A DNA stretch of 64,000 nt from Mayamaea pseudoterrestris (lineage: Eukaryota): NCBI GenBank assembly GCA_027923505.1, contig BROI01000019.1:124001-188000 (forward strand), written 5' to 3'. Positions 1-64,000 of this stretch are shown here, piece after piece. Under the pieces are notes generated by a model that saw only the letters and a list, made by a program, of their open reading frames with translations, searched no databases and had not been told where the DNA came from. Within the stretch, counting starts at the first letter, position 1. Every line of letters starts with the position of its first letter. The position numbers and the translations under genes are program-made.

Positions 1-75
1 GTGGAGCAGTTTACCGAGGGCGTTTCCGCCAAGATGCTTACCGTCGACTCCTTTCACACCGTCAACATTCAACGC
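1..75 (+). mobile_element. C-terminal tail of a probable tyrosine recombinase (DIRS-order retrotransposon); ORF enters from the left edge
   Basis: Frame 1 reads VEQFTEGVSAKMLTVDSFHTV, which resembles, from recall, the segment following the GRWxSDAF..YIR motif in diatom DIRS-type YR proteins. The catalytic motif itself lies outside the window. It is followed by the split repeat. Confidence 0.55.
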
Positions 76-76
76 C

Positions 77-103
77 ACCAACAACAACAACAACATCAAC
101 AAC
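77..103 (+). repeat. (CAA)n microsatellite
   Basis: caacaacaacaacaacaacatcaacaa. Confidence 0.8.
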
Positions 104-171
104 CTCATTACATTTCCGATCAAACAGAACAACGGACGCTCCCATGCCATGGGACCACGTTGCCCATCGCC

Positions 172-712
172 TTCAACGCGCCCGCCCACGCTCCCCCGCC
201 ATCAATGGCACAGCAGCAGCTTCTGCAGCTGACGAGTGATCGCGCTTTACCGCCGATCAGTCACTGTGTTCAGTGGGGGAGGCTTTGGTTCCGACACATT
301 AGCTAAACCAAAGTTTTCTGCAAGCGCCAGCTTCTTCATGTAGTTAATGAGGAATCTGTTTTGAGCCTGGTTCTTTTGGGATTCTGGATTGGTCGAAATG
401 AGAGGTGGTGCTTTCAGGATTCCAAGTTCCTTCAAGCCACGCCAGCGGCGTTCGCAGCGAACAGCCTCTTCAATCTTTCCTTGTTCTTCGGTTCGGAGTG
501 GCGCATGTCCCGCGGGGCATTCACTGACAACTCCGAACTAGTCGTGGTCATCCGGAACAATGACCTTGATCGTGGATGACCATTTGGCCGCAAAGCACAC
601 GCAACACACCAACAACGAACCAGTCTGCTCCTTTGATTGTTGTTGTTGCTGCAGCTCATAATTCCTGGATCACCCCGAGTCTCCCGTCGAGACCAGTAAT
701 TATAGATTTTTA
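172..712 (+). repeat. Terminal repeat region, block B (~172-373) then block A (373-712), of the putative YR retrotransposon
   Basis: Reverse-complement matches: 211-348 to 8401-8542, 346-373 to 7294-7321, 373-460 to ~8818-8907, ~650-712 to ~8570-8630. Confidence 0.9.
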
Positions 713-730
713 AGTCTTCCTCCCATCAAG

Positions 731-1576
731 ATGTCTTCCAACTGGCTCTCCTACTACTCGGACCCGAGTCGCAATCGCCGCGTTCTTCCTCCGCTCTACA
801 ACGGACTCGCTCAAACCATCATGACGTTCCAAGAGCACAAGGTCGAGAGCTCCTTGGAGAAGCTCTTTGCAACTCCCGCGACTCCAGTTGCTCTCATTTC
901 TTTTGATGGAGACAAGATTGGAGTGCATGTGGCTCACCATTTCACGTTCGCTCCCAAGGATCAAAGCAACCCTCGCAACGCGTCAACGTTGTTTGCCTTC
1001 CTCGGTCACAAGGCCTCCGCTCCGGTCACTTTGATTGACGTCAAGACTCTTGAGCTTGTTACCAACAAGGCGACGCCTGTCTACACGCCTCTGGGCGAGG
1101 TTCTGTTCGATTTGAAGAACTTGGAGCGTCCAGTCCTCGAGGAATTGCTCAAGCTCGAAACCAACGTTTTGTCGCCTCTTGTTTCGCCCGCCTGCTTTCC
1201 CATCCCGCCACTTGCCATTGAGGCCATTGCCAAGCACGGTCCATACGATATTGAAGGCATCCTTTCAGCCTTTATGTCAACCTTGTGTACTTGGCCCACT
1301 CAGTATGCCTCTGTGGTCTCTACAGTCGACGTCTACCACAACGCCTTTCCCTTTGCTCAATTCCTTTGGTGGGCGTTGAAGGTGACCAGCAATTCGGACT
1401 TGTCTTCGGCCGACGAGGCGATACTTAAGTCCCTTCCTGGTTTGCCTACCATTTTGGACGCCGACTCCATTCCAGCGGCAACCCTCGAAGATCTTGCCGA
1501 GCACGCCAAGTTTGCCAACATCCCCTTTATCCACGCGACCACGAAGACGATGGAACTTGGAATTCTCGTCCGTTGA
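731..1576 (+). CDS. Putative gag-like ORF1 of the YR retrotransposon, probably 3'-truncated
   Basis: 281-aa intronless ORF starting ~20 nt after block A; no recognisable host domain; assignment rests on position. Confidence 0.45.
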   Translation: MSSNWLSYYSDPSRNRRVLPPLYNGLAQTIMTFQEHKVESSLEKLFATPATPVALISFDGDKIGVHVAHHFTFAPKDQSNPRNASTLFAFLGHKASAPVTLIDVKTLELVTNKATPVYTPLGEVLFDLKNLERPVLEELLKLETNVLSPLVSPACFPIPPLAIEAIAKHGPYDIEGILSAFMSTLCTWPTQYASVVSTVDVYHNAFPFAQFLWWALKVTSNSDLSSADEAILKSLPGLPTILDADSIPAATLEDLAEHAKFANIPFIHATTKTMELGILVR

Positions 1577-1659
1577 AAACTGTTGAAAAACGTCGATGGC
1601 GCGGCGCGCGCTAGCGGCGCGGTCCCCTCACCTCATTCTTCGTTCAAGCAGTGAGCACC

Positions 1660-2667
1660 ATGATGGCGACTATGAACATGCTGCCGCCACCAAACCGAAT
1701 ATCTCGACAATTCCTGGCGTATTTAGCAGCTCTTTGGATAGTCTCTGATATTTATGGAAACGTAACAGCGTTTTCCATCCAAACGTCGCGGCGAAACCGT
1801 GGCAGTGCCATGCAAATCATCAAGAGCCAGTCTCTTCTGCATCATCGACGACGACTACTCATTACTCCTCTATATTCCACTCCCACCAATAATAATGACG
1901 ACGACAAAGACTCTAGAAAAAACAATAATGATAAAACTCAACAACAACAACCATCACCAATCGACGTTTCCGTGGACGCTCGCTTGACGCGCGTGCGACT
2001 GTCGCGCGCCATGGGCATTGACTGGGGCACGGACCTTTCCTTTTCGTTCGTCTATGTGCGCGCCATGGACCCCAATGGAGATGCCTACATGTCGAAGCGA
2101 GTGCGCGTCGGTGATCAGCTATGCGAAATGACGCCAGTGAGTAGTCAAAGTGCAGTTGCTGCTCCAGTCAATCTCGTGGGCGCACCCTTTGACTTTGTCA
2201 TGGAAAGTTTTGCAACATTGGATAAAACGATCCAGCAAGTGGACTTGGTCTTTTTTAGAGGCACCAAGGATGAACTCAAAGCCTTGGTCACTGGCCAGCC
2301 TGTTTCTACGACCAACGAAGACTTGATTACCGTCACTGTCATTCAAGACAAGGGCTCGCCGCAGGAAACGACGCGACAACTGCAAGCACCGCGCGGCACC
2401 AATCTGCGCCAACTCTTGGTGGACAACCAAATCAACGTTTACCAGTCACTCACGCGCTGGACCAACTGCAAGGGCAAGCAGCTATGCGGAACATGCATTG
2501 TCAATGTCACTGACGGAAGCATGCAAACGAACCGCAAAAGCATGGACGAAGCGTCGACGCTGCGCGAGAATCCAAACTCGTATCGTCTGAGTTGCGTCAC
2601 GTTTTGCTACGGAAACGTGCAAGTGGAAACCTTTCCGCCCGTGCAAGTGTCGCAGTGGACGAGGTGA
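1660..2667 (+). CDS. Plastid-targeted PDZ + 2Fe-2S ferredoxin-domain protein
   Basis: Signal peptide ending VTA-F; PDZ-like RAMGIDW...VRVGDQL; ferredoxin cysteines NCKGKQLCGTC...YRLSC. Confidence 0.8.
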   Translation: MMATMNMLPPPNRISRQFLAYLAALWIVSDIYGNVTAFSIQTSRRNRGSAMQIIKSQSLLHHRRRLLITPLYSTPTNNNDDDKDSRKNNNDKTQQQQPSPIDVSVDARLTRVRLSRAMGIDWGTDLSFSFVYVRAMDPNGDAYMSKRVRVGDQLCEMTPVSSQSAVAAPVNLVGAPFDFVMESFATLDKTIQQVDLVFFRGTKDELKALVTGQPVSTTNEDLITVTVIQDKGSPQETTRQLQAPRGTNLRQLLVDNQINVYQSLTRWTNCKGKQLCGTCIVNVTDGSMQTNRKSMDEASTLRENPNSYRLSCVTFCYGNVQVETFPPVQVSQWTR

Positions 2668-2819
2668 ATGAGAGTGGGCGTATGGTCAGTACTACTTAAT
2701 GATGGTATTGCTCAATGCTGACAAGCACAATTGTCTGGCTTTAGCTTGTATACAAAAAGTTTGTATGCAAATCGTTGTTATGTATGCATGTGTGTTTAGA
2801 TTGGTGCTCGCCGCCATTG

Positions 2820-3298
2820 CTACTTTGCCGCTGCATTTTTCGTCAGTCGGACAACTTCACTGCCATCGTCCGCTTCCTGCGGCACGAGTGGGTCATCCTC
2901 ATCGGCATGTTCATCGTACGCCTCGCTCAAGTCTTGGTGGTCAAACGAAGAAGAATGATGCTGCATTTTGTTGACAGTTTCCACTTTGCGTTTGCGCTGG
3001 AATCGTCTGTTTATAATGTGTGTTGGAATGTGACAAAGAAGTGAGCATCAAGAGCCAGGAGCCAGAAATGGACAAAGGGGAAGCAACTTTTTTACTGCCC
3101 CTCTTTGTTGAACTCATCATCCACCAAAACATACACTGGCTTCACACAATCTACTAAATCATTCATAAATTTCACTCACCGAAAGAACCTTTGCACATTG
3201 TCCGTGGTGCGCTGATAGCAAAAGGCTGCGAGTCGCTTCACGAGGTCAAAAACGTCGTCATGCACCGCCACTTCCTGCGACGACGGCAATGGAGGCAT
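2820..3298 (-). CDS. Small two-exon hypothetical protein (~101 aa) not shown in the ORF track
   Basis: Exon 3298-3180 (MPPLPSSQEVAVHDD...QRFFR), intron 3179-3007 (GTGAGT..AAACAG), exon 3006-2820 stays in frame (RFQRKRKVE...DEHADEDD...AAAK*). Confidence 0.55.
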
Positions 3299-3557
3299 GT
3301 TTTTCACAAAAACGTATAGAAAGTAATTGATGTACTATCTGTAAGGCACTGCATCGCCATGTGCAAGGGCCAACTCGGCCAAAGAACGGATGCACGATCA
3401 AAGGCAAAAAAGTCATCCGCGTGAATACCGGTTTTGCTCGTAACGGTACCCCAACGGAGATGTTGGTAACGGTACGACACCTCTTCACGCCGACTTTTGC
3501 GACTCGGGCATTCACAACACACACGGCCAAGCCCACTCAACAACTTGGCTTTTCATC

Positions 3558-5096
3558 ATGTCGGAACCATTTTGCGTGACAGAGTCAGCAGCAGCACAAG
3601 ATGTGTCAACTGTCGCATGGAACGTCCATCAAGCGGTGGAAACGCTGCGCCAACTCGACCTCCAAGACGTTCCTGCCATGCGCCGCACGTTGCGCGGCTT
3701 GGATCGCGCCACGATCGATTTGGTGACTCATTTGCAAAACTACAATACCCCGGAATGTCCCGTCGTCTTGCCCGACTACTACCACGTGGATGTGCAGCAT
3801 ATATTGGCTCGTCCGTACGTACCCGACGAGCAGGCGCAAATACTGCTGGCCAATGTCTTGAGTCGACTCGCACCCTTTCTGCAGCTGTCGCCCGACAATT
3901 TAAATACGCTACTGTCGCTACTAGTGTCGTGGGTGCCACGCGCGGAGCTGCAGGTGGCGTGGCTGCAGCTACTGGTGCACGCGGGGCATATTGCGTGGGA
4001 AACGCAGGCGGGAGTGGCAAACGTGTTGACGGCGGAACATGGTGGTGCTTTGGCTGCGACGCGCAACACTAGCAGCAGCAATCCGTGTCCGTGGTTTGAG
4101 CGGCTGTTTCTGCTGCTCCAGCGCGTTTTGAATGAGCAGGTGCCGCAATGGTCCGTGAAGGAAGCCAAGAGTAAGGAGCATGCCGCATTGGTGCTGTGGC
4201 GGGGATGTATCATTCGCGTGTTGAACGTCATTTCGCAAATGTATCGATCGCAAGCGACAATGGCCGTTGACACTGCGGCTGGAAACGGTTTCGATCAGAT
4301 AGACATGTTGACGTGGATGTTCAACTGGCTGGCGAGTCATTTGCAGTCCTCCGCGACCCAGCCTCCGCTTCAAACACTTGAAATTCGATGCTCCAACCTT
4401 TTAAAATTGACTGGTCGTTTCGCGCAGCAAATGGTGGAATATGCCATGGACGCGCTCGATGGTGCCTTGATTGCAGCAACGCAGCAGCAGCAAGATGAAG
4501 ATGACGCTGATGCATCTGCAAACACCTATTGGGCCATGCACCAAGCCATGTATCATTTTGAATCCGCCGTCTACGTGTTGCAGCTGACGGCCGAGTGGAA
4601 GATTGTGCCAGACCTTGCAAGTACGCTGGAAGCCATGTGGAAGCAATGCTCGCAGGCGTTTATTGGTCAAGACGAAGATGGCGTCGTTGCGCGCGTGTTG
4701 CTGCAAGTGGCGACGCAGTATCTGGAAATCGCGGCGGCCACGAGCATTGGTGGGACGGAGAATGGAAGCATTCCATTGGACATGCCCGTCTTTATTCTCA
4801 CACTCTTTCGCGCTGTGGAATCGTGTCCTTCTGCATTGTTAGAAGCAAAATTGCTTTGGAGCGTGCTTGCATCGCAATTGAAGGAGTCCAAGTGCAAGGA
4901 CGTAAGGTCGGCGGTGCAACTCGTTCTTTTCTCACTTTCGACTGAGCTTGTCGGTAACGCAGCTGACGACCCTGTCAAGGTTGAGCTTGGTAACAAGTTT
5001 CTCCGACTGATGAATACTATCCGGGATGACATTGAGAACGAAGGAGACGAGTGGGACGCGTACTTTATGCGTCGCTTCACGAATGAGCAACAGTAA
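3558..5096 (+). CDS. Hypothetical alpha-helical protein (512 aa)
   Basis: Long ORF with Leu/Ala-rich helical composition. Confidence 0.75.
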   Translation: MSEPFCVTESAAAQDVSTVAWNVHQAVETLRQLDLQDVPAMRRTLRGLDRATIDLVTHLQNYNTPECPVVLPDYYHVDVQHILARPYVPDEQAQILLANVLSRLAPFLQLSPDNLNTLLSLLVSWVPRAELQVAWLQLLVHAGHIAWETQAGVANVLTAEHGGALAATRNTSSSNPCPWFERLFLLLQRVLNEQVPQWSVKEAKSKEHAALVLWRGCIIRVLNVISQMYRSQATMAVDTAAGNGFDQIDMLTWMFNWLASHLQSSATQPPLQTLEIRCSNLLKLTGRFAQQMVEYAMDALDGALIAATQQQQDEDDADASANTYWAMHQAMYHFESAVYVLQLTAEWKIVPDLASTLEAMWKQCSQAFIGQDEDGVVARVLLQVATQYLEIAAATSIGGTENGSIPLDMPVFILTLFRAVESCPSALLEAKLLWSVLASQLKESKCKDVRSAVQLVLFSLSTELVGNAADDPVKVELGNKFLRLMNTIRDDIENEGDEWDAYFMRRFTNEQQ

Positions 5097-5173
5097 TAAC
5101 GACAAGTAGGTGACGCTTTAATTTAATATGGAACAACGTAGGAGTATATTTAATCTTTATATGCGTGCCGTTA

Positions 5174-7195
5174 TCAAGCAGTAGCCATAGGCATCATGGC
5201 AAAAAAGCGATTTGCAATCGCTGTCAAAGGTTGTCCCGACATCCAATTATTTCCGTCATTGCCCGTTCGTCGACGCAGTTCCTCGGCAATTTGTTCATTC
5301 TGTAGCCGAATGGCCCACTGCAAGGGAGTGTAACCATTCCCAGCTTCAACATTCAATGGAGCTCCATAATGATCCAGCACGGCGAGTGCCGGTACTGCGT
5401 TGCTTCCCGCGCAAAAGTGTGCCGCCGTCCACCCGTTCTTGTCTTTGCGACTTACATTGCAAAGGCCGCCATCAGCTCCTTCATCATCCGTATCAGCTTC
5501 TTGGCTCGCGACGACTGGAGTGGCATTGAATGCCTCTACGCTACTACCGGTAGTAGTTAGCTTGATGCTGTCGTCTTCGCTAATGCCTCGACATAAAAAG
5601 TTGAGCACTTGCGTCGATCCATAAAACGCGGCAGCATGCAAGGCGCACGTTTCGCTTCCATCGCTCCCCAAATAAAAGCCGTCCACGTCCAGCGACTGAA
5701 CCAAGTCCTTGACAACATGAAACGTTTCGTCCGACCGACAGGCATCCAAAAATGTGCGCGTCAATTGTTCCTGCTCCTCCGGAGTCAAGCAGTCGAATCG
5801 TGCCTTGCGTTGATCCTTGATCATGGAACACACCTGCGTTTGTGCCTGGCGAATGGTGCGAACGTAGGATCCAAAGCAGCCACTGACGCAGGTCACTGAC
5901 TCATCGCATGATAATGTGATTGCATTTGGTGCGACCCCTCCACCGTCATTATGCAAAGTGTTTGTCTTCATTTCAATTTGGTGAACATGCTCGTAGGCAG
6001 CTTGCATGCGCCGAAACAAAGGACTCCTTTCCATAAGAACGCGTCGAAGCTCTTGTACTCCCATGGCCAAGGAGTTTGTGGCGTGTTGTTGACTACTCAT
6101 ATCAACGCGCTCACCATTGGGCGCATCCGGTGCGTTCAAAAGTGATTCCGCATGACCATCACTAGCAGCAGTCGCATTCTCCGTTACTGTTGCGTGATTC
6201 GTATGCATCGTCTTGGCGGCCCCCATGAGGCTTCCGACAAAGCCAAGCTTGAGCAAAACGTGCGAAAACTCGGCATGCTGCTCCAAGTAGACGAGCGCCT
6301 CGGACGCCTCCGCTCCCGTTAATGCTGCCGCCGCGGCTCCTCCCAAGACTGCCATGAGCAAGGCCGCCTTGGCCAAGTTGCGCGGGTCTGGTGCAGATTC
6401 CATCATGTGATGCTCCTTGAGAAAGGATTGGACGCGATGGGACAGCGAATTTTGGGAAGATGAGCCAGTTAGATTTTGGTTGGAGACATGTCTGTCACTA
6501 TATTGCTTTAACATTGCTTCCGCTTGATGCCTGTCCAGTTGAGCGAGCCGGGTAATGACAGCAGTCTCGTCCCTGCGCCCGTGATTCTGGTTGTTGACTG
6601 CTCGTTCCAGCTGCAGTTGCAAATGCCGGTAGCATGTTGCGTTTGGCTTGCGGGCCGTTTCGGAAAAGGCAGCCATGGACTTGAGATCCAAAAAGGTTAC
6701 AACATGACTCAAGACATCGTCTTGTCGAAGAATGGGACAGGTGCTTGTTGACATTTCTGCATGACTAGCTCCATGATTTGTTGCAGCAGCTTCCATGCAA
6801 GAACCAGCAGCTGCTGAAGCTATTGTTGTATCGTCCTGGTCATCATCCAGCAACCAAAGACTCAATAAATCATTCGTCGAACTAAATATATCATCTCCCT
6901 GCGACGAATTTATCGACTGCGCGTCCTGCTCGGACTGAATGGAAAAGTAGCATGAGGAAACCCGTCGGAGCTCGTGCTCAATGGCTGGCAGTAGCGATAA
7001 GTTGCTCTTGGTCAATGGATAGAATGTAGCTTCGTTTGCAGCAGTACTGCAACCATTTTCATCTCGATTCGCAAACTCATCCAATGGCTCGTTGGCCGAC
7101 GGCGCTCCATCATCTGCCTGCTGACGCGAAAAGCCTTTGTCGGCTGGAGATGCGGCTTCGCCGTCAATCGACTGCTCGAGGCTACTGCTTTGCAT
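5174..7195 (-). CDS. Ankyrin-repeat protein with F-box-like segment and hydrophobic central helices
   Basis: ANK motifs CALHAAAFYG, GWTAAHFCAG, GYTPLQWA; F-box-like DDVLSHVVTFLDLKSM; first ATG at 7195. Confidence 0.8.
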   Translation of the reverse strand: MQSSSLEQSIDGEAASPADKGFSRQQADDGAPSANEPLDEFANRDENGCSTAANEATFYPLTKSNLSLLPAIEHELRRVSSCYFSIQSEQDAQSINSSQGDDIFSSTNDLLSLWLLDDDQDDTTIASAAAGSCMEAAATNHGASHAEMSTSTCPILRQDDVLSHVVTFLDLKSMAAFSETARKPNATCYRHLQLQLERAVNNQNHGRRDETAVITRLAQLDRHQAEAMLKQYSDRHVSNQNLTGSSSQNSLSHRVQSFLKEHHMMESAPDPRNLAKAALLMAVLGGAAAAALTGAEASEALVYLEQHAEFSHVLLKLGFVGSLMGAAKTMHTNHATVTENATAASDGHAESLLNAPDAPNGERVDMSSQQHATNSLAMGVQELRRVLMERSPLFRRMQAAYEHVHQIEMKTNTLHNDGGGVAPNAITLSCDESVTCVSGCFGSYVRTIRQAQTQVCSMIKDQRKARFDCLTPEEQEQLTRTFLDACRSDETFHVVKDLVQSLDVDGFYLGSDGSETCALHAAAFYGSTQVLNFLCRGISEDDSIKLTTTGSSVEAFNATPVVASQEADTDDEGADGGLCNVSRKDKNGWTAAHFCAGSNAVPALAVLDHYGAPLNVEAGNGYTPLQWAIRLQNEQIAEELRRRTGNDGNNWMSGQPLTAIANRFFAMMPMATA

Positions 7196-7293
7196 TTTCT
7201 TGTTTCCTATTTTTGCTTTCAAAAGCTCCTAGACTCGATTACACTCGACTCATTAATTAAGCAGATTGTCTTGGTCGTGGATGTTCATGGAGC

Positions 7294-8907
7294 GAACGAG
7301 GCTCAAAACAGATTCCTCATTAGAGTGTCCTCGCTGACGATTTCATGTTGCATGTCGTGTCGCATGTTCACGAACTTTGCCACGTCATAAATGTCAAAAG
7401 AGTCATCAAAGCACATGCGCCATTTGTTGCCACTCGGCGCGCGCCTCGAATCGTTCGATGCTGCACGTCAACACCCGTTCGCCCCTCGTGCCTCTCGGCC
7501 TCTCGGGACCACCACTTGGCTGCTGCTTGACTGCAAGCAATTGAGTGGTTGTAAACCATTCTACGGCTTTATGATATTGCTTTGATGATGTTCAGTTGAG
7601 TCCTAGCCCTTGATGGCTTCTCCTTTGGCATGCATGCTGCCTCATCACTCGCGCACAGCGCACAGTATAATAATGGACTTTTCACCATCAGACTACTATC
7701 TTACATACTGCAATTTATAATAGACAAAACGTTTGGACTACAAGATGAATTATTTCAGTCTCTGCAGTAGCATATGTACTGGAGCCATAACGGCAGTTGC
7801 ACCGCACGACGACACGACGACACCGTTCGCAGACAGGACCAAAGCCAACTGCAAGCTCCAACGGGATCATGACCAGCAGACTGCGTTTTTCCAAAGCATA
7901 TGCCTCCTTTGTTTATAACAAAGTATTTGGCTGTCCCTTGGTGAGAAATAATGGCAGTTGATGCGGCAAAGGAGCGTTCACGACGAGACGGCGAGCGACG
8001 AGCGACTCGTCCGCGCGATGACACCGTGGAAGTCGAAAATCACGACACGAAAGTGGCCAAAGTTTGACCAGCCACAAGCAGGTCCAAACAAGACCAAACC
8101 AAAACCTTTTGTGATTTACTTGTACCTCAAGACTTTGATTATCTATAAATCATAGTAGCATAGTGATATTCCATCTAATAGTCAAGTTATGGTAGGAGCA
8201 AAGGATGCAACATGGAGGCTGCTCGTGTCCGAGTTGGTTTTTGAAGTCTGACATTTCGACGCAAAATGTCGCGCATTGGGGCGCATTAGGGATAGAGGAT
8301 ACGACATGAAGTCGAACATTCGTGTGATGACTCATCACGGTTCACAAATACGTCATCACAACATTGACATGCGACACGACATCGCCAGCGAGGACACTCT
8401 ATTAACTACATGAAGAAGCTGGCGCTTTGCAGAAAACTTTGGTTTAGCTAATGTGTTGGGACCAAAGCCTCCCCCACTGGACAGAGCAGTGAATGATCGG
8501 CGGTAAAGCGCGATCACTCGTCAGCTGCAGATGCTGCTGCTGAGCCCAGGGATGGGATGGGTGGGTGTTTAAGTCTATATTTACTGGTTTCGACGGGAGA
8601 CTCGGGGTGAATCAGGAAATAATGAGTGCAACAAAAGCAACAAAAGTGTTGTTGCTGCTCGAGTGAAAGGCATCCAAACAGTCATAGCGGTCGTGGAAAG
8701 TTTCAAGTGACCGAACAAGTGACTGTGACCGTTCGGAGTTGCCCAAGAGTGAGCCGTAATGAATTCCGGGGAACATGCCGTTGGGGCACGGAGAATCTAA
8801 AATGCCGAAATGATATTGATCGCTGGGAACGCCACTGACGTGGCTTGAAGGAACTTGGAATCCGAAAGCACCACTTCTCAATTTCGACCAATCCAGAATC
8901 CCAAAAG
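7294..8907 (-). mobile_element. Diverged solo A-B copy of the YR-retrotransposon terminal repeats, interrupted by a TIR element
   Basis: The minus strand reads block A (8907 to ~8570) then block B (~8566-8401 plus 7321-7294); ~532 bp after removing the insert and one TSD. Confidence 0.8.
7322..8400. mobile_element. Non-autonomous TIR DNA transposon (MITE-like, 1079 bp, 3-bp TSD ATT; PIF/Harbinger-like)
   Basis: TIR AGAGTGTCCTCGCTG(A/G)CGAT..GTCGTGTCGCATGT at both ends; ATT at 7319-7321 and 8401-8403; empty site GATTCCTC-ATT-AACTACA on the minus strand at ~339-356. Confidence 0.9.
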
Positions 8908-9331
8908 CACTGTGTGCCCCGAAGAACGCATTCCCTCGACCTCCATCGTGACACCCGGCCTGCTGCTGACGTAGGCATGCAAGTGTGTCGCGGTGTGACA
9001 GATGGGACATATGTCGCAACGTCACTCCCTCATCGACGAGCCGTTGAAACGGCTCGAGCACAAAATTTTTGCGCGCTTTTGTTCATCAAACATCGTCGTC
9101 GCTTCTTGCCTTGTTGCTGGTGATCTTGCGGAAAGTAATAGGCTGCTCTTGTCATCGACAGTAGTTTGCTGGTATCTTGCAAAAAGGAGAAAATTATTTA
9201 GTCAGCAACACTATTTTCAGTTGGAACGTATCGCTGCTCCATCGTCACGCTGCTGTCACCTCTACTACTTGCAAATTGTAGCAGCGCACCCTTGAAAGAC
9301 ACTTGAAAGAGTCAAACGACACAATATCATT

Positions 9332-40144: not shown

Positions 40145-40476
40145 TTGTTCCAGTATAATGTACAGGAATTGTTGTGTCTACCGATAGGTATCTCGACAAA
40201 AGATAATGATGATCTTCCTTGAGCTGCGCCGAAGCTTGTGTCATGGTGAAGGTTCGAGCGCGGCACGAAGCAGATCGACCGACCACCTCGGATGACGTGG
40301 TTGTTGAAGCGTGACTGTATCAAGCGTGAATGAAAAGAAGGCCACTCCCGTTGCGACATCTTACAGTGCGCGACCACGACCGCTCGTGACCATGGACAAG
40401 AGTGAATCTCCGTCCATTGCTCGCTTGCCTTCTTGATCTGAACCTACACATATATACAGCTCCAATCAATTTCACC

Positions 40477-41622
40477 ATGACTGATTCTACTTCCACCAAA
40501 GGATCCGCTAACTTGCGATCGCTGATTTACGATCCATCCGCTCCAAGCCTCCAAGTCCTCGATCAGCTGCTGCTGCCGCACCAAAAAGTGTACCTCCACA
40601 TACGCAACGTTAGTGACGCTTGGAAGGTCATTCGATCCATGCAGATACGAGGCGCTCCACTGATTGCCATTGTCGCCTGCCTTGGTCTAGTGGTGGACTT
40701 GCATTCAAATGAAACCAAGCAAGCCATGGAAGCTTGTGCAGATGCCGCGGCGCTCGCTGAATATTTGCAAACCAAACTGGATTACTTGGCCACGTCGAGA
40801 CCAACGGCGGTCAACTTGTTTCATGCGTTGAAGTCAATTGGAGAAATTGTCAAGAAAGAGACTGAAGAGACGACTAAAAACAGCACAAAACTCCAAACGC
40901 GCCTCGTGAACGCCATTCAACAATTCGCCCAAATTCACATTTACCTCCGCGACGAGCGGGACAATATATCCATTGGCAATCACGGCGCAAACGCCATACT
41001 ACTGGCCGCCGAGCAGCCCCACCAGCTGCGCGTCATGACCATTTGCAACACTGGTAGCTTGGCCACGGGCAACTACGGCACGGCGCTCGGCGTCGTGCGC
41101 ACCTTAAACAACCGGCAGCGACTGTTGCAAATTGTTGCGCTGGAGACTCGTCCGTACAATCAAGGTTCGCGACTGACGGCGTTTGAGCTACAAGAAGATC
41201 AACTACCAGGCTTGCTGATTTGCGACAATATGGCTGGTTATTATATGGCGCAGCACAAGGTGGACGCCGTTGTGGTGGGCGCGGATCGCGTCTGCGCCAA
41301 TGGCGACGTTACCAACAAGATTGGAACGTACACGCTGGCGCTACTGGCGACCGCTCATGGAGTGCCCTTTTACGTGGCGGCGCCACTGACGACGCTCGAC
41401 GCGAGTCTGGAGAGTGGAGCAAATGTCGAGATTGAGGAGCGTCCGGCGGTCGAGTTGATACGTTCGAGTCAGGCGCCGGAGCACATGCCCGTGTGGAACC
41501 CGGGGTTTGACGTGACGCCCGCCAAGTATATTCATGGCATTATTACCGAAAAGGGAGTCATTGTGAAGAATGCGGCTGGAAAATTCGACGTGGCTGGCTT
41601 TATTCGAAAACACGCAGATTAA
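40477..41622 (+). CDS. MRI1: Methylthioribose-1-phosphate isomerase
   Basis: LDQLLLP, MQIRGAPLIA, SRPTAVNL, CNTGSLAT.YGTALG, ETRPYNQGSRLTAFE, GADRV..NGD..NKIGTY. Confidence 0.96.
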   Translation: MTDSTSTKGSANLRSLIYDPSAPSLQVLDQLLLPHQKVYLHIRNVSDAWKVIRSMQIRGAPLIAIVACLGLVVDLHSNETKQAMEACADAAALAEYLQTKLDYLATSRPTAVNLFHALKSIGEIVKKETEETTKNSTKLQTRLVNAIQQFAQIHIYLRDERDNISIGNHGANAILLAAEQPHQLRVMTICNTGSLATGNYGTALGVVRTLNNRQRLLQIVALETRPYNQGSRLTAFELQEDQLPGLLICDNMAGYYMAQHKVDAVVVGADRVCANGDVTNKIGTYTLALLATAHGVPFYVAAPLTTLDASLESGANVEIEERPAVELIRSSQAPEHMPVWNPGFDVTPAKYIHGIITEKGVIVKNAAGKFDVAGFIRKHAD

Positions 41623-57381: not shown

Positions 57382-60132
57382 ATGAGTGCGCCGGATGATC
57401 CGAAGTACTTAGCCCTCCTAGCGCAAGTAGGAGAAGCGGAGGAGAAAGCTGGGGTCGCCATCGCAACGACAGCGTCCATCAAGGCCGAACTAGACGCCCT
57501 GAACGAGAGAGCAGCGTCGTACCAACAGTTCATGGATCTCGAAACGGATGCAGCCATGCGCGCGAAGCTCGCTGAAACGTTTGATCCGTTCCAAGCTCGC
57601 CTCGCCGGAAAAGCCACGGAGTATGCGGCTGCCGTGAGCTCCGAGGAAGCTGCCAAGGCAGCGGCTGTCGAGACCAGGAATACGCTCGAGACGATACGAG
57701 CCTTTATCCTTGCCGACTCAGACGAAGCTTTCATCCAAGTAACAGGACGCAACAAGGCGGCGAAGAAACAGCCGGCGGCCGCAGATGCCACTCCTAAACC
57801 CGCGCCGCCTCAGCCATCCGCTGGTCCGAGTCCTGCCGCCACAGCAACACCCACCACGACAGCGATCGTCCCAGCAGCTATCACACCTACTCCTGGCACT
57901 ATTCCACCGAAGGCGTCGAAGAAAGTGATCAAGAGACGGTCCAAGAAACTCTCCACTGCCGCTCAAGCCGCCCTGGACGATCAAGCCATGGCCGAGCAGC
58001 TTGCTCTCAACAAGGCCGCCGCCGGTGCTACTGCCGCCAGTGCGGACCGCACCTACTCTGCCCTCGAACCCGGCAACGACGGTTACACCGACAGCGACGC
58101 CGGGAGCAGCGAGCGCTCAACCGTCTTTGACTTGACAAACACTGAGATCGGGTTCCGCCTCTTCGATACAGCCATCGATCCTAGTCAGCTCCGCACGCTC
58201 ACCTACGAAACGATCGGGCTAGACGATTTACTCGATGCATCAGGGCAGTTCCGCCGCGATTGGCGCACCAACCATCTCTATCCCAGCATCCGCAACCAGC
58301 TGGTCGCTTTGATCGGCCTCCTCGACATCGATGGCACCGACGAAGCGAATCGCCTTCTGTCGATTTTCGACTCGCTTGCCTCGTCCAAAACGCTACCTTT
58401 GGTGTTTGCTGACAGTGAGACCAAGAACAAGTATGGCGTATTCAATGCTACTCGCCTTCTCAAGAAGCTTTCGCAGTGCAGTACCCTCACGCGCGCGGGT
58501 CAAGACGGGGATCGTGTGTTCCAGTTTCTCTTTCCATCCGGCGACATCCTTAAAGCACTGCAAGTGGCCACCTCTGCCTCTCCGTTCTATTAGTCGTCGC
58601 CGTCGCGATCTTCTCCAAATGAGGAACCAAAGTTCCTTCTTGGCCGCGGCAACCGGCAAACTCCGGTGTTGCACACCCAGCGCTATGAATCACCCGCTCC
58701 GTCTGGGCGACAGATCCTATGGGACCCGCTCACGCAGTACGGTACCGACAACATCCACCGCTCTTACGCCCGGGAGGAAGTCCTAGAGGAACGTCAGCGC
58801 AACCCTCCACAGCGCCATGTATCTCCTAGTTGGGAATACATCACGTATCCGTCCCCAGAGGATCTTACCCTCGACGAAGAGACGCAGCGTTTCCCGCACT
58901 GGCTCGCTTTCTGCTCCGCCTCTGCGTCCAAGGACCCGATTCCCATCTACCCGATCCCTTATCATATTCCTCTCATGGATCGTCGCATGGCCATGGCTGC
59001 TCTTACCGATCACAGTCGCCTGGCCACGGCTGAGATGCTCGCCAAGTTTGCGAAGAACAGCTCCATGCCTGTTTACGTCCCGCCGCCTACGCCCGCCACA
59101 CCTGCCTCTGTCGAAGCGTCACTCATCCTCTGGTATAATCACCTTGCCCTTTTCGGGCAAGCTCATGGATTCTTCATTCCTCCACTTCATACCATGATTG
59201 TTGACGACGACCTTGGCGCCTGGGGCAAGTACTTGAATATTCACCAACATGGTTACACCGAGACCATTTGGCAGACGCATCTTCTGATGTATCTCAAGAA
59301 CCCCAAAACCGGGCTGAACAGTGAGAAGACTCCGGTCCGCCTTCGCAGTTGTGTTGAAACGGCTACCAACGGCTACCATGCTCTGTATCTTCTCGGGGTT
59401 GAAGCCAACAGTCGCCTGCGCGAACGTCCCGAGCTCCTGGAGGCGCCTCGTCAATTGGCTACCCAATCTGTCAGTGCCTATCTCAACGCATGGATTGGCT
59501 ACGCCAACAAGAAGCTTCTTGGACTTACCATTCTCTCCGATCGCGGTTTCGTGGCCGGTTTTGTCGCGGGTCTCCTCCCGTTCTACCATCAGCATTACGG
59601 TTTGCACCTCCTCAACTGCCTCCGCTTCGCGCCTTGGGACCGTTGCCTTCCATCGAAGTTTCATCCTACCGCACTCACCAACACCATGAGCGATATCGTC
59701 GGTGAGTCTCACACTAGCGACGCTCTGTTTGCGACTCCTCGGGCCTCCGTTCGCCCTGCGCTTCCTCCCAGTCCTCCGCCCGCGACTCGATCGGGCCGCG
59801 TCTACAACGCTCATCAAGTCCGCTTTACCGACCACTCCGACGATTCCTCGGTCGACCCCTCTCCTCCACTAGACTCGGCTGCCCTCATTGCCGCCCTTGA
59901 GGCCACTGGTGAGTATACTGTTCACGCTCTTGATCGTGATCGCCAACTTTCTCCTTGCGGCTGGTGCCTTGAGGATCACCTCGCCTCCGCCAACTGCCCT
60001 CTCGTTGTGCGCCTTTGCCGCGACTGCTCTCCCGGGTCTATCTCTACCTTAACCCGCAAGTTGGACGCTCTCCTTCGAACTCAACCGCGCCCGCCTACCG
60101 CTTCCGCTCCCGCCTCGGCGGATTTTCAGTAG
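57382..60132 (+). CDS. gag: gag-like region with one in-frame TAG at 58591-58593
   Basis: ORFs 57319-58593 and 58666-60132 share a frame with a single stop between them; knuckle-like CGWCLEDHLASANC near the end. Confidence 0.7.
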
Positions 60133-60170
60133 CCCGGCATGCCGACCATCCCTCCGCATGTGAACGGGTT
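60120..60170 (+). promoter_or_regulatory. Predicted -1 ribosomal frameshift signal
   Basis: G GAT TTT (60120-60126) just before the gag stop; stem 60131-60142 pairs with 60156-60170 with a GAA bulge. Confidence 0.75.
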
Positions 60171-63100
60171 TTTGATATTACTGCCGTTGTCGGGACAGAA
60201 TCCGGACGAGATCCTGGTTTACCTCTCGTCTGTCCCGGTCTACCCTCCGAAGGGGACGTTTTGTCCCATCCTCTACCCTTTGAACCACCTCCGGCGACCC
60301 TGCCTGTTTGTGCGCCTCCAACCCTCTCTTCTTCCTCCCTCGGCTTGGATTCGGGGAGGGCCCCACCCAGTGACACTATCGATGACGCCATCGACCTCCG
60401 GGATTCGCCAGATTCCTTTTCCGACCTTCTTGATGATGAGCCGGTCCCTTTTGGCTCTTCGCCTACCCCGTCGCCCGTTCCGTTCGCGACGCCCGAGGCC
60501 AATGCCGCCTGCGCACCTATACCGCCTCCCGGCCTCGTCGGCGACGGTGCGGCCCCGCAATGTACGGCTGCCGAGCGCGCACCTATGCGTCATAACGATG
60601 CGACCCGTCATAACGATGCGACCCGGATCGAGCAAGTGATATGCGAGATGGAGATCCTCGACTTGACAACAATTGGCCTGGACTGCATTATGGACGACGA
60701 AGGCTACACAGACGATGATTGCCCCATGGTCGACTACGCCCAAGATGCCGAAAATTGTTCCGCCTTTGCGGCGCACGCCCCAAACGAGGATCCCGACGAC
60801 GGCCACGGCAATCCCGATGATGTTGTCTACCATCTGAACCAAGTTCTCCTTGCCTCCAAAGCGGAAAACATTCCTGACGACGCCATCCTGGAGTCCATCA
60901 CCGCTACTCATTCGCCTGCGGACCGCGGCCTACACGAGTTCACTCGCATCTGTTGCCGCATGCCCGAGTGCACGGTAAATGAAGTGTATGAAATCCATCG
61001 CGCCACTCATGGCGACAGCCTGGCCGATCGCGGCCACATGGACGCTGGAGCATCACTGTCCACCACTCCGGCTAAAGAGCTGCTCTGGAATTACCGCACC
61101 GTTGATGGTCCTACCCTCGTCGTCGCAGACGGCTCCCGACATAAGGCCATCGGAATCGGTTTCGCAAAGGTGCCTCGTCTACCCACAGAGCGACCCTGGC
61201 GTCATTCCACAATTGGCCCTACGCACGAGTTTATTCCGGTCTACCATACGCCTGGAGTCACCGCCACCATTTTATTGCCTCATCACATCTCCAAGCACTT
61301 CCACTGCAGCGGCCATAGCACTGTAACGTCCTACGACATATCGTCCTCGACCATCAAGTTTACTTCCTGCCTCCGTCGTGCTACTGCCGATATCTCTTTG
61401 ACGCTTGATCTTGTTGGCGGCCTCACCTACACCGGCCCCTGGACGCGTCCGTCTGCTCTTGAGCATCTCCAACCCCTACCGCGCTCGGAGGATTTCTGCG
61501 TCCACCAAGTCTCTGGCGCGCGCCCATGTCTCTGTGGGACAAGTCCTTGCCCGGCGTTCAAAGGCTTCTGCACGGTTATTGATGCGCCGCCTGCGCCCGT
61601 CAGTCTACACGCTCTTGTTGGCGACCCGATCCAGTACCACGTCCATCACTTGACCCATCGCCAAACAGCTGTCCTCTGGCACCAGCGCTGCGCTCACCTC
61701 AATCACCGGCGCATGTCCCAGCTTCATCAACATGTACGCGGCGTCCCGCGACTACCGCTTACCGACAGTCTGGACAACTGTCCTACCTGCCAACAGGCGA
61801 AGCTCACTCGTGCCGCCCGCGGTCATGGTGACTCGCGACGCGCCACAGTCCCATTTCAAGGGCTCTCGGTTGATTTTGGTTTCATGGTACAAAAGCCCAC
61901 CAACTCTGAGCGCGTTCGCGATCTTACTGGCGTCAACGGTGAAACGTGCTACTGCCTAGTGGAAGACCATTTCTCTGGAGCTCTTTTTGCTCGTACTTTT
62001 CGCACCAAAGCGCCTCCCTTGGCGTATCTTTCTGAATTCCTCGCTGCTCACAATCCTGGCGAAGGCGTCGATCGCTACGTTCGGTTTGAGCTTGGCGGCG
62101 AACTCGGCCGTTGCGCCGCTCTCGTCGACTTGTTTGGCTCCGCCGGCTACTCGGTTGAGACTACTGCACCCGACTCGTCGCACCAGAATGGCCCAGTTGA
62201 ACGTCCTCATCGCACGATCGCCGCTGGCGTCCGCTCTTCCTTGATAGGTGCCGGGCTTGAACCAAAGTACTGGCCCTATGCTCTACATCATTTCCTCCGC
62301 GTCTTCAATGCCACTATGCCTTGTGGGGATGACCACAAGACGCCGTTCGAACTGTGCGTCGGTCATCAACCCGACATGTCCAATTTTAAGACGTTTGGCT
62401 GCCGTCTGTATGCCCTCCCTAGTCACGGCCGTTCCGCCAAAACCCTCAACGAAGCGAGGACTGGTGTTTTCCTGGGATACGCGCGGACAACCAAGAATGC
62501 CCTATACCTGGACCTTGCCAATGGGCAAATCAAGACTTGCCAGCATGTCTCGTTTGACGAGTCTTTCAATGATTTGCCGTTTCACTTAAAGCCTCCCAAT
62601 GCGCAACGGCTCGATACAATCCGCGATGACGCCGAGGATCAGGCAGATAATCACCCTCTGGCCCCTACCGACTTAGAGCAATCTCTTCTCGACCTCGACG
62701 TTTCTCCCAACATGTTCTACCATACCACCGCCATATCAATGGCCTTGCGCGACGGCGCCATTGCGTGTGACTTTGCACAATGCGAGTACTTGTCTCGGCC
62801 CTACGTGTCGGAGTTTCACTCGCTGCCTACCGCCCGCTTTCGTAGCTTTCCTGCTTTTCGCAAGAAATTTGTTGGCTCCTACGTTGGTGCCATCAACGGC
62901 ACTCCTGTGTATACTGCCGACGACATCGCCGTCCAGATTGCTGCGCTTGCAGCCACGGCTCTCCATTCCGAAGTAACTCTCGACCTCGCCCCTATTGCGT
63001 CTACCGATCGTTCCCTTCGAACGACGCCTCTCCATCTCCGCCTCGCGGACATTCGCCGTATCAGCGCTCTTATTGCTGTTGATGGGGAGGGGGACAGCGC

Positions 63101-64000
63101 TCAGGCATATCAACGTACACTGACAGCCTTCGCGCGCGCTCCCGCAGATAGCGAGCTTCACGAAGCACTACTCGCTACGCACCGCGTAATCAACAGAATA
63201 CAAGCGCCTTGCCTCCGCCCACTTCATCGTCTCCAATCTACCACTATGACCGACGAGGAACGGCGACTGCCTAAACTGAATCGCTCCAGCCTTCGACGAT
63301 TGTCCAACTGGTCTGAATGGGATGCGGCTCACGACAAGCAAATAGATCAACACTACAAAGATGGCACCCTCGGCCTCCCGATGGCGACCCCGATGCCAGT
63401 AGACGGGAAGCGCCCGAATGTCCTACGCGTGGTTTGGTCCTTTATGGTGAAGGAAGACGGCCGGCGAAAAGCGCGTTCATGCATCGATGGATCCAAGCGC
63501 TCTGCCCCATGGCTGCGTCAATTTGCGGAAACATACGCATCCTGTATTGAATTACCATGCCAACGCCTCTTCTTTGCCCTCGCAGCCGCCAAGAATTACG
63601 TGGTCACTATCGCGGACACCACCAATGCGTATCAACAGTCGCCAGGCCCTTCGGAGCAATGCTACTTGCGCATAGACGACGCATATCGCTCCTGGTTTCG
63701 CAAACGCCATGGGCGAGATATTGATCCTGCGACTCATGTGGTTCCCATGCTCAAAGCTTTCCAAGGCCACCCTGAGGCTGGTCGCCTATGGGAACGAATG
63801 ATCGTCGGTATTCTTACGAAACTCGGCTACAAATCGACGACCCACGAGCGCAATCTATATTGCGGTACTACCGACGGCGAAGATGTGATTATATGCCGCG
63901 AAGTGGATGATTTTGCTGTTGCATCAGAGCATTCCGAGACCGCTGATATTCTGATTGGCGCCATCAACGAATTCGTCACCACGGAGAGCAAGGGGATTGG
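60123..64000 (+). CDS. pol: pol polyprotein (protease, integrase, PDZ-like segment, reverse transcriptase); partial and absent from the ORF track
   Basis: Frame 3 is open from 59973 to the end: HMDAGA, LWHQRCAH..CPTC, SVDFGF, HQNGPVER, GVFLGY, RKARSCIDGS, DTTNAY, KAFQGHPEAG, REVDDF. Confidence 0.92.

Follow-up and report, generated by a model that had tools for sequence, protein, structure and literature searches.

The stretch of the Mayamaea pseudoterrestris genome analysed here (the window, 64,000 nt; assembly GCA_027923505.1, contig BROI01000019.1, positions 124,001 to 188,000) carries in its first 9 kb two copies of a pair of repeats, here designated A (about 354 bp) and B (about 165 bp). 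In copy 1 (207-727) the order is B then A, and in the inverted copy 2 (7294-8910), a solo A-B unit, it is A then B; the unit is about 0.53 kb in both copies but is written in different phases. Both repeats adjoin the ends of a polyprotein gene, and they are probably parts of a low-copy retrotransposon that most likely integrates by means of a tyrosine recombinase, which would place it in the DIRS order, with split direct repeats of the Ngaro/PAT-like kind. The relevant features, which refer to the annotated protein P0126 and to contigs of sequencing run X3 described below, are as follows.

1..141, plus strand: last 47 codons of an upstream polyprotein open reading frame (ORF), just past the recombinase-like domain, located by tblastn of P0126 residues 1982-2029.
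142..206, plus strand: variable stretch from the polyprotein end to B; similarity to P0126 fades after residue 2029 and other copies differ here.
207..369, plus strand: repeat B (3' trailer), internal copy B1, 93-97% identical to the reverse complement of 8546-8401 plus 7322-7298.
370..373, plus strand: GTTC core at the head-to-tail B/A junction; both ends of copy 2 map here, and the empty site holds one GTTC.
374..727, plus strand: repeat A (5' leader), directly after B; compared with the reverse complement of 8906-8568, 93% identical over 374-463, 60% over 464-636 and 84% over 637-712.
731..1576, plus strand: first 275 codons of the polyprotein in a second, 3'-truncated unit, which leaves the family at about 1555 and reaches a stop codon at 1574-1576; a 281-aa protein at NCBI.
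7294..7297, minus strand: right core copy of the solo, GTTC, at the joint seen in the empty site.
7298..7322, minus strand: repeat B of the solo, last part, 20/21 identical over 349-369 (BLAST match 345-373).
8401..8546, minus strand: repeat B of the solo, first part, 93% identical to 207-348.
8547..8567, minus strand: C-rich A/B boundary, a spacer of 21-23 nt present only where B follows A; 23 similar letters occur in an X3 contig.
8568..8906, minus strand: repeat A of the solo.
8907..8910, minus strand: left core copy of the solo, GTGC.

A BLASTN search of window 100-800 against the whole 64-kb window gave, besides the self-match, only four matches, all in copy 2, and no further A or B. Segment 207-348 matched the reverse complement of 8546-8401 (93.2% identity), 345-373 that of 7322-7294 (96.6%), 370-463 that of 8910-8817 (91.6%) and 637-709 that of 8643-8571 (85.1%). 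Segment-wise global alignments, each compared with 300 shuffles, gave between the two copies 84/90 identical positions at the start of A, 103/173 in its middle, 64/76 at its end, 136/146 in B and 20/21 at the end of B, with no shuffle reaching the score of any segment. The opposite order of A and B in the two copies, which had been proposed in a reading made from the sequence alone, is thus borne out by both methods. On the minus strand copy 2 reads A, the C-rich boundary of about 21 nt and then B, and its outer ends both map to bases 370-373 of copy 1, the left one as GTGC and the right one as GTTC. The base-exact coincidence of these ends claimed in the sequence-only reading therefore stands as to place, but is exact only within the shared 4-nt core. 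Three of its boundaries had to be moved: firm homology in B starts at 207 (weakly at 199) and not at 172, homology in A reaches about 727 and not 712, and the transposon nested in copy 2 was measured at 7323-8400 (1078 bp) instead of 7322-8403. A control alignment placed the right edge of A, about 727, three bases ahead of the ATG at 731. The ends of the element are taken as the first base of A (TTTTGGG...) and the last base of B (...GAGCCTG); they show neither TG...CA nor inverted repeats.

Conservation along the unit was uneven, with 93-95% identity over the approximately 90 nt at the start of A and over all of B, versus 60% in the middle of A, as would be expected of ends that are required in cis. 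This conserved block is non-coding, since in the longest frame across the B/A joint (minus strand, 247-537) only 2/9 substitutions, counted over the bases other than 349-373, fell at third codon positions and three 1-nt indels occurred. Pfam gave no match for this frame. A small protein encoded across the joint was accordingly rejected, its sole database match being a spurious tetratricopeptide (TPR) repeat and its substitution pattern non-coding. An element of the small circular RNA or retrozyme type, with a ribozyme in the unit, was also set aside: an Rfam E-value scan of 1-9200 gave nothing relevant, only four weak matches (E 1.5-6.3), none a ribozyme and none in A or B. DNA folds disclosed no hairpin beyond shuffles at the joint or the ends (z +1.13, +1.06, +0.49 and -1.38). 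A metagenome scan with a 25-mer of A and a viral scan with a 19-mer of A each found 0 loci; a metagenome scan with a 20-mer of B found 5 loci of 63-69% G+C that shared only the 20-mer and were attributed to chance.

The protein linked to the repeats was identified by exact look-up of six window ORFs, in which the 281-aa ORF fell into a 90% cluster with four annotated proteins of the same genome, located on two other contigs: P0123 (984 aa), P0124 (650 aa), P0125 (719 aa) and P0126 (2059 aa). Residues 1-275 of P0126 correspond to window 731-1555 (266/275 identical), and tblastn aligned its residues 1982-2029 with window 1-141 (47/48 identical, P0126 having one additional Q); over the final 30 residues of P0126 (2030-2059) the resemblance to the window is lost. 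A near-length protein search with ORF 731-1576 found none, the relatives being longer than the length band searched, and a search of ORF 1-306 against longer proteins likewise found none, P0126 exceeding its 2000-residue limit; an Atlas search with ORF 731-1576 gave no usable match. As window 1-141 is the tail of P0126, the window opens within the polyprotein of an element lying upstream. The body starts right after A and ends just ahead of B, so that A, which ends three bases before the ATG, is the 5' leader, B, which begins shortly past the stop codon, the 3' trailer, and GTT(C) presumably the exchange core. The simplest reading of copy 1 is a joint between an element with its body upstream of the window and a second unit, consisting of A and 275 codons, which is cut at about 1555; the local order is body-B/A-truncated body. 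An X1 contig covering 915-1550 ends where this second unit leaves the family. The head-to-tail arrangement could be due to a circle that inserted at the left end of an older copy, or to recombination of one copy with another.

Two other views of copy 1 were abandoned. Window 1-206 is not a decayed copy of A, as its local alignment was no better than that of shuffles (231/500 and 72/500 reached the score) and it holds the polyprotein end. Insertion of a circle at a second site bearing a 7-nt CCATCAA repeat (199-205 and 723-729) has been superseded; it is unneeded because the left edge of B and the right edge of A are simply the end and the start of the body.

Depending on the gene model, the body is read as one frame of about 2059 aa or as two genes, of 719 and 984 aa; on the other contigs of the genome, one full element has been annotated both as such a neighbouring pair and, undivided, as the 2059-aa protein. 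The discrepancy between these models lies between the RNase H-like part and the recombinase-like part, and it points to a frameshift or mis-called intron at that place. The 281-aa hypothetical protein at NCBI (731-1576) is what remains here of the 5' part of the polyprotein, and it passes into unrelated sequence at about 1555.

Inspection of P0126 by eye disclosed the motifs PKYDWKSAY (1262), FGGSPCP (1305), FLDD (1384) and LGWEID (1448), which we take to be those of a reverse transcriptase (RT); TDA (1567), E (1601) and DN (1628), presumably the RNase H triad; and AMRSCE (1843), HSLR (1943), GRW (1967) and LSY (1975), read here as the R..HxxR..W..Y set of a tyrosine recombinase. The candidate catalytic tyrosine, in LSY (1975-1977), lies five residues before residue 1982, the first encoded in the window. 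For comparison, in DIRS1-like elements the RT motif is given as YL/IDD and the recombinase motif as HSTR by Piednoel (2011; PMC3266345), and an R-H-R-Y tetrad is given for tyrosine recombinases by Kojima and Jurka (PMC3212892). A CCCH-type finger was indicated at 702-721 of P0126 (Pfam zf-CCCH_12, E 0.0095, below the cut-off), and about 130 residues separate the RNase H-like from the recombinase-like motifs. When residues 740-984 of P0123, the homologous part, were compared by the Atlas language model, the neighbours scored 0.90-0.93, and seven of the eight rows shown named a family: Phage_int_SAM_1, NDC10_II, Phage_int_SAM_4, DUF3435, DUF3504 and, in two rows, Phage_integrase, the eighth having no common family. 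Three of these families are integrases by name, and NDC10_II and DUF3435 are counted here as recombinase-related. DUF3504 has been derived from a Crypton recombinase (PMC3212892). Pfam found no rve integrase and no protease in P0126, though the Copia-type polyprotein of the window was recognised at once; it also found no methyltransferase, in searches that equally missed RT and recombinase. The RT, RNase H and recombinase identities are thus likely, though not proven. Where the sequence-only reading expected these three domains upstream of the window, a polyprotein does end there, and the motifs of P0126 and the language-model lead point the same way, but every profile search was negative.

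The nature of copy 2 was established from contigs of four public runs (X1, X2, X3 and X6, of which X1 and X2 belong to two different studies), aligned to 1-9000 at 80% likeness. One contig each in X1 (depth 26.5) and X2 (depth 87.5) joins 7297 to 8912, skipping 1614 bases (7298-8911); two other letters stand at the join, the shorter side measures 89 letters, and the depth is about that of one haplotype. On the minus strand this empty site reads ...CACAC GA GTTC GCTCC..., with a single GTTC, and the filled site ...CACACA GTGC/TTTTGGG...GAGCCTC GTTC/GCTCC..., so that a single mismatch and an indel next to it separate the two haplotypes there; in copy 1 the joint reads ...GAGCCTG GTTC TTTTGGG.... 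As the empty site lacks 7298-8911 and holds one GTTC, copy 2 was inserted as precisely one A-B unit, which only one haplotype carries, and its earlier description as a solo A-B is confirmed. The four-base core is found singly in the B/A joint and in the target, and it flanks the solo at either end (GTGC and GTTC). From this one insertion, the core is shared by junction, target and both flanks, without a target duplication as such, and the interpretation of B/A as a head-to-tail junction is supported by the identity of its GTT(C) with the core at the flanks.

Other contigs disclosed the same edges. The body end is joined to B (141 to 201) in contigs of X1, X2 and X6 (sides of 31, 31 and 18), other copies differing in between. 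B runs in line into A in an X2 contig that spans exactly 207-715 with one mismatch, and A is followed by B through the 23-letter boundary in X3 (joint 710 to 207) and by the joint 724 to 8566 in contigs of X1 and X2. In an X3 contig the first base of A borders on 519 letters of unrelated DNA that do not resemble the window. In an X6 contig, 1530-1826 (one mismatch) stands directly before 373-402 (no mismatch), with 30 letters on the A side, one fewer than the rule for a bridging contig asks; the cause may be a strain-specific insertion, or else a tandem duplication that stops at the first base of A. The X6 joint falls within the N-terminal part of a Fer2-domain ORF (1660-2667). Summed contig depth over A/B was 224 in X1, versus 107 and 83 over the ORF start, and 672 in X2, versus 426 and 293; the roughly twofold excess is a weak hint that fits two A and two B per body, although depth is no copy number.

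What is shown here is the geometry; an RNA step, a circle and the action of an enzyme are inferred from the model for the DIRS order. The RNA would be copied into DNA, with the internal B/A joint specifying the junction of a circle; the recombinase would then exchange strands between this junction and a target with a similar core, leaving one copy of the core on each side and no true target duplication. Solo copy 2 would be the residue of recombination between two A repeats, or an inserted A-B mini-circle; in either case it was later hit by another transposon.

The family is classified here as a new, very divergent member of the Ngaro/PAT-like elements. The arrangement A1-[ORFs]-B1A2B2 has been described for Ngaro, PAT-like and VIPER elements (PMC4157794, PMC6681497, PMC8547959), and both this arrangement and isolated AB repeats are reported in the stramenopile Cafeteria burkhardae (PMC8547959). 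The Mayamaea element resembles the Cafeteria Ngaro in its split direct repeats, internal B/A joint and scattered isolated A-B, and in the succession of a Gag-like, an RT/RNase H-like and a recombinase-like part; as in Ngaro, there appears to be no room for a methyltransferase in the approximately 130 residues between the RNase H-like and recombinase-like motifs. It differs in that its RT and recombinase are invisible to Pfam, whereas the Ngaro domains were found by conserved-domain searches (PMC8547959), that one gene model is a single 2059-aa frame, that the joint precedes a second body and not B2, and that the host is a diatom. With the PAT-like elements (PAT, Kangaroo and TOC; PMC4157794) it shares the A1-B1-A2-B2 logic and, as in Pat1, a Gag-like N-terminal part with a zinc finger, but their methyltransferase domain was not seen in it. 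The same logic is apparently shared with the non-autonomous TOC1 of Chlamydomonas (bioRxiv 10.1101/2022.06.16.496473). Most DIRS1-like elements start and end with NTT matching the circle junction (PMC3266345), DIRS1-like elements tend to lie beside or within other copies (PMC3266345, PMC7192593), and DIRS-1 is reported to insert at the left end of older copies (PMC7192593); similarly, GTT, within GTTC, stands here at both ends and matches the junction, and FLDD and HSLR resemble YL/IDD and HSTR. DIRS1-like elements, however, have inverted terminal repeats and an internal complementary region, not split direct repeats.

Several observations weigh against this assignment. The A-body-B-A-B structure proposed in the sequence-only reading is supported by the B/A joint and the solo A-B, but in copy 1 A is followed by the start of the body (275 codons of polyprotein) and not by B2. 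In the window and the run contigs, the full order A1-body-B1A2B2 was not seen in one copy, only its parts: body-B/A (1-727), A-body start (374-1555) and A-spacer-B (the solo and contig joints). RT, RNase H and recombinase were found in none of P0123, P0124 and P0126 by Pfam (E up to 10), NCBIfam, PHROGs, PADLOC or PDB sequences, and BLASTP against the Copia polyprotein of the window gave a best E of 0.85. Single-sequence folds were poor, with a mean predicted local distance difference test score (pLDDT) of 45.1 for the C-terminal 267 residues of P0126 and 35.8 for P0124. Atlas scores of at least 0.9 arise in 4-10 per 100 shuffled proteins, and the method is not calibrated on parts of proteins; the motif readings, including the meaning of R..HxxR..Y, draw partly on general background. 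The left core is GTGC and its flank differs by one further base from that of the empty allele, so that the argument from the core concerns 4 nt with one mismatch. Finally, the X6 contig puts 1826 by 373 behind GAG and not GTT, with the same short A side of 30 letters.

A bolder reading, less probable yet to be taken seriously, is that the 0.53-kb A-B unit moves in its own right as a mini-circle, released when the recombinase resolves the two B/A sites of a replication intermediate and re-inserted at GTT-like cores. Solos would then be insertions and not deletion scars, and the polyprotein would stand for a deep and so far unseen lineage of recombinase retroelements, out of reach of standard profiles. 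The family would still be moving in Mayamaea, because one solo is hemizygous and the joint at 1826 is possibly strain-specific. Unlikely is a Crypton-like DNA transposon, a double-stranded DNA circle cut and pasted by its recombinase with no RNA step, of which A-B would be a non-autonomous derivative. Cryptons (CryptonS, of oomycetes and Phaeodactylum; PMC3212892) have a tyrosine recombinase and direct end repeats of 4-6 bp that are taken as recombination substrates, one is known in a diatom, and no RT profile matched the Mayamaea protein. They are described, however, as DNA transposons with neither an RT-like part nor long repeats, the usual CryptonS terminus being TATGG (PMC3212892), whereas here a B/A joint lies within the chromosome, P0126 has FLDD, FGGSPCP and TDA...DN between its N-terminal and recombinase-like parts, and its 2059 aa far exceed a recombinase alone.

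The 4-nt repeats flanking a unit of about 0.53 kb, together with the empty site, would also suit an ordinary long terminal repeat (LTR) retrotransposon, with A-B as the LTR (a solo LTR at 7294-8910), B/A as a tandem LTR-LTR or two-LTR-circle joint and GTTC as a 4-bp target duplication, in a genome rich in Copia (PMC9724779, Table S3) and with a Copia element in this very window at 59973-63998. This is very improbable, as the ends lack TG...CA and are not inverted repeats, A and B are separated by the body instead of being repeated together at both of its ends, P0126 matches neither rve nor protease and resembles a tyrosine recombinase at its C-terminus, and GTTC is found at the internal joint as well. 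It is no more credible that microhomology repair by the host, without a recombinase, took up a small circle of repeat DNA, be it extrachromosomal circular DNA (eccDNA) or a satellite monomer. Exactly one unit was inserted, in permuted phase and with 4-nt identity of junction and target, as such repair would allow, but breakpoint 373 recurs in the solo, in the X3 contig with 519 letters unlike the window and in the X6 contig, A and B are leader and trailer of a protein-coding element, and conservation is much higher at the ends than in the middle. The least plausible candidate is a rolling-circle element of the Helitron or Replitron type, with the B/A joint arising by tandem read-through. Given the 4-nt ambiguity the unit can start with TC and end with CTGG, and Replitrons carry short direct terminal repeats (PMC10288648), but neither end has a significant hairpin, Replitrons were not found in diatoms (PMC10288648), the repeats are not linked to any HUH or helicase protein, and the protein that is linked to them carries RT-like and recombinase-like motifs. 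Introners were considered and set aside.

Several other features of the window were observed. Copy 2 is interrupted within B by the nested transposon already mentioned, which does not belong to the retroelement.

7321..8401, no strand assigned: non-coding transposon nested in B of the solo, 1078 bp (7323-8400), with 36-nt inverted ends and a 3-bp (TTA/ATT) duplication.

Many other copies of this transposon are present in the runs, as loose ends at 7321 and 8401-8407, and internally deleted forms are seen as joints 7537 to 7855, 7878 to 8039 and 8032 to 8179. The published table for the species lists 0 DNA transposons, versus the inverted-repeat transposon found here (PMC9724779). In the N-terminal region of the Fer2-domain ORF, an in-frame low-complexity stretch of 153 nt (1803-1955) is absent from contigs of X1, X2 and X3 (joint 1802 to 1956). 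At 2900-3640 and elsewhere in 1-9000 there are two contig versions about 10% apart with many small indels, for example 45 other letters and 32 gaps in 3172-3635, and this divergence far exceeds the species heterozygosity of 2.97% (PMC9724779). The conserved window ORF 40390-41622 is 100% identical to an NCBI protein assigned to Mayamaea pseudoterrestris, and its next relatives are all from diatoms, in agreement with the diatom origin assumed in the sequence-only reading. At the far end, 59973-63998 encodes a Copia-type polyprotein (gag_pre-integrs, SH3_retrovirus and RVT_2) that is open at the end of the window.

The kind of element is known; its host group and its divergence are new. Among related organisms, Cryptons are known in Phaeodactylum (PMC3212892), DIRS/Ngaro-like elements in Ectocarpus (PMC3145265) and Ngaros in Cafeteria (PMC8547959). 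Word searches of an incomplete literature collection found no description of a recombinase retrotransposon in a diatom: the available text of a diatom survey of transposable elements (PMC2806351) has none among the families of Phaeodactylum and Thalassiosira, and that of the 2011 overview (PMC3266345) lacks the words diatom and stramenopile. The M. pseudoterrestris genome was reported to contain 19% repeats, mainly Copia (PMC9724779), with 51 'Gypsy/DIRS1' elements, 0 DNA transposons and 7.36% unclassified repeats in its Table S3; in this table the family could only fall under 'Gypsy/DIRS1' or 'unclassified'. It escapes Pfam, and parts of it pass in the annotation for ordinary hypothetical genes, the 281-aa ORF 731-1576 among them. 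Retrotransposons of the recombinase type are rare, and little documentation exists of their integration step. In the locus described here the junction, the filled site and the empty site can be read together to the base, in a diatom that can be cultured and has a small genome.

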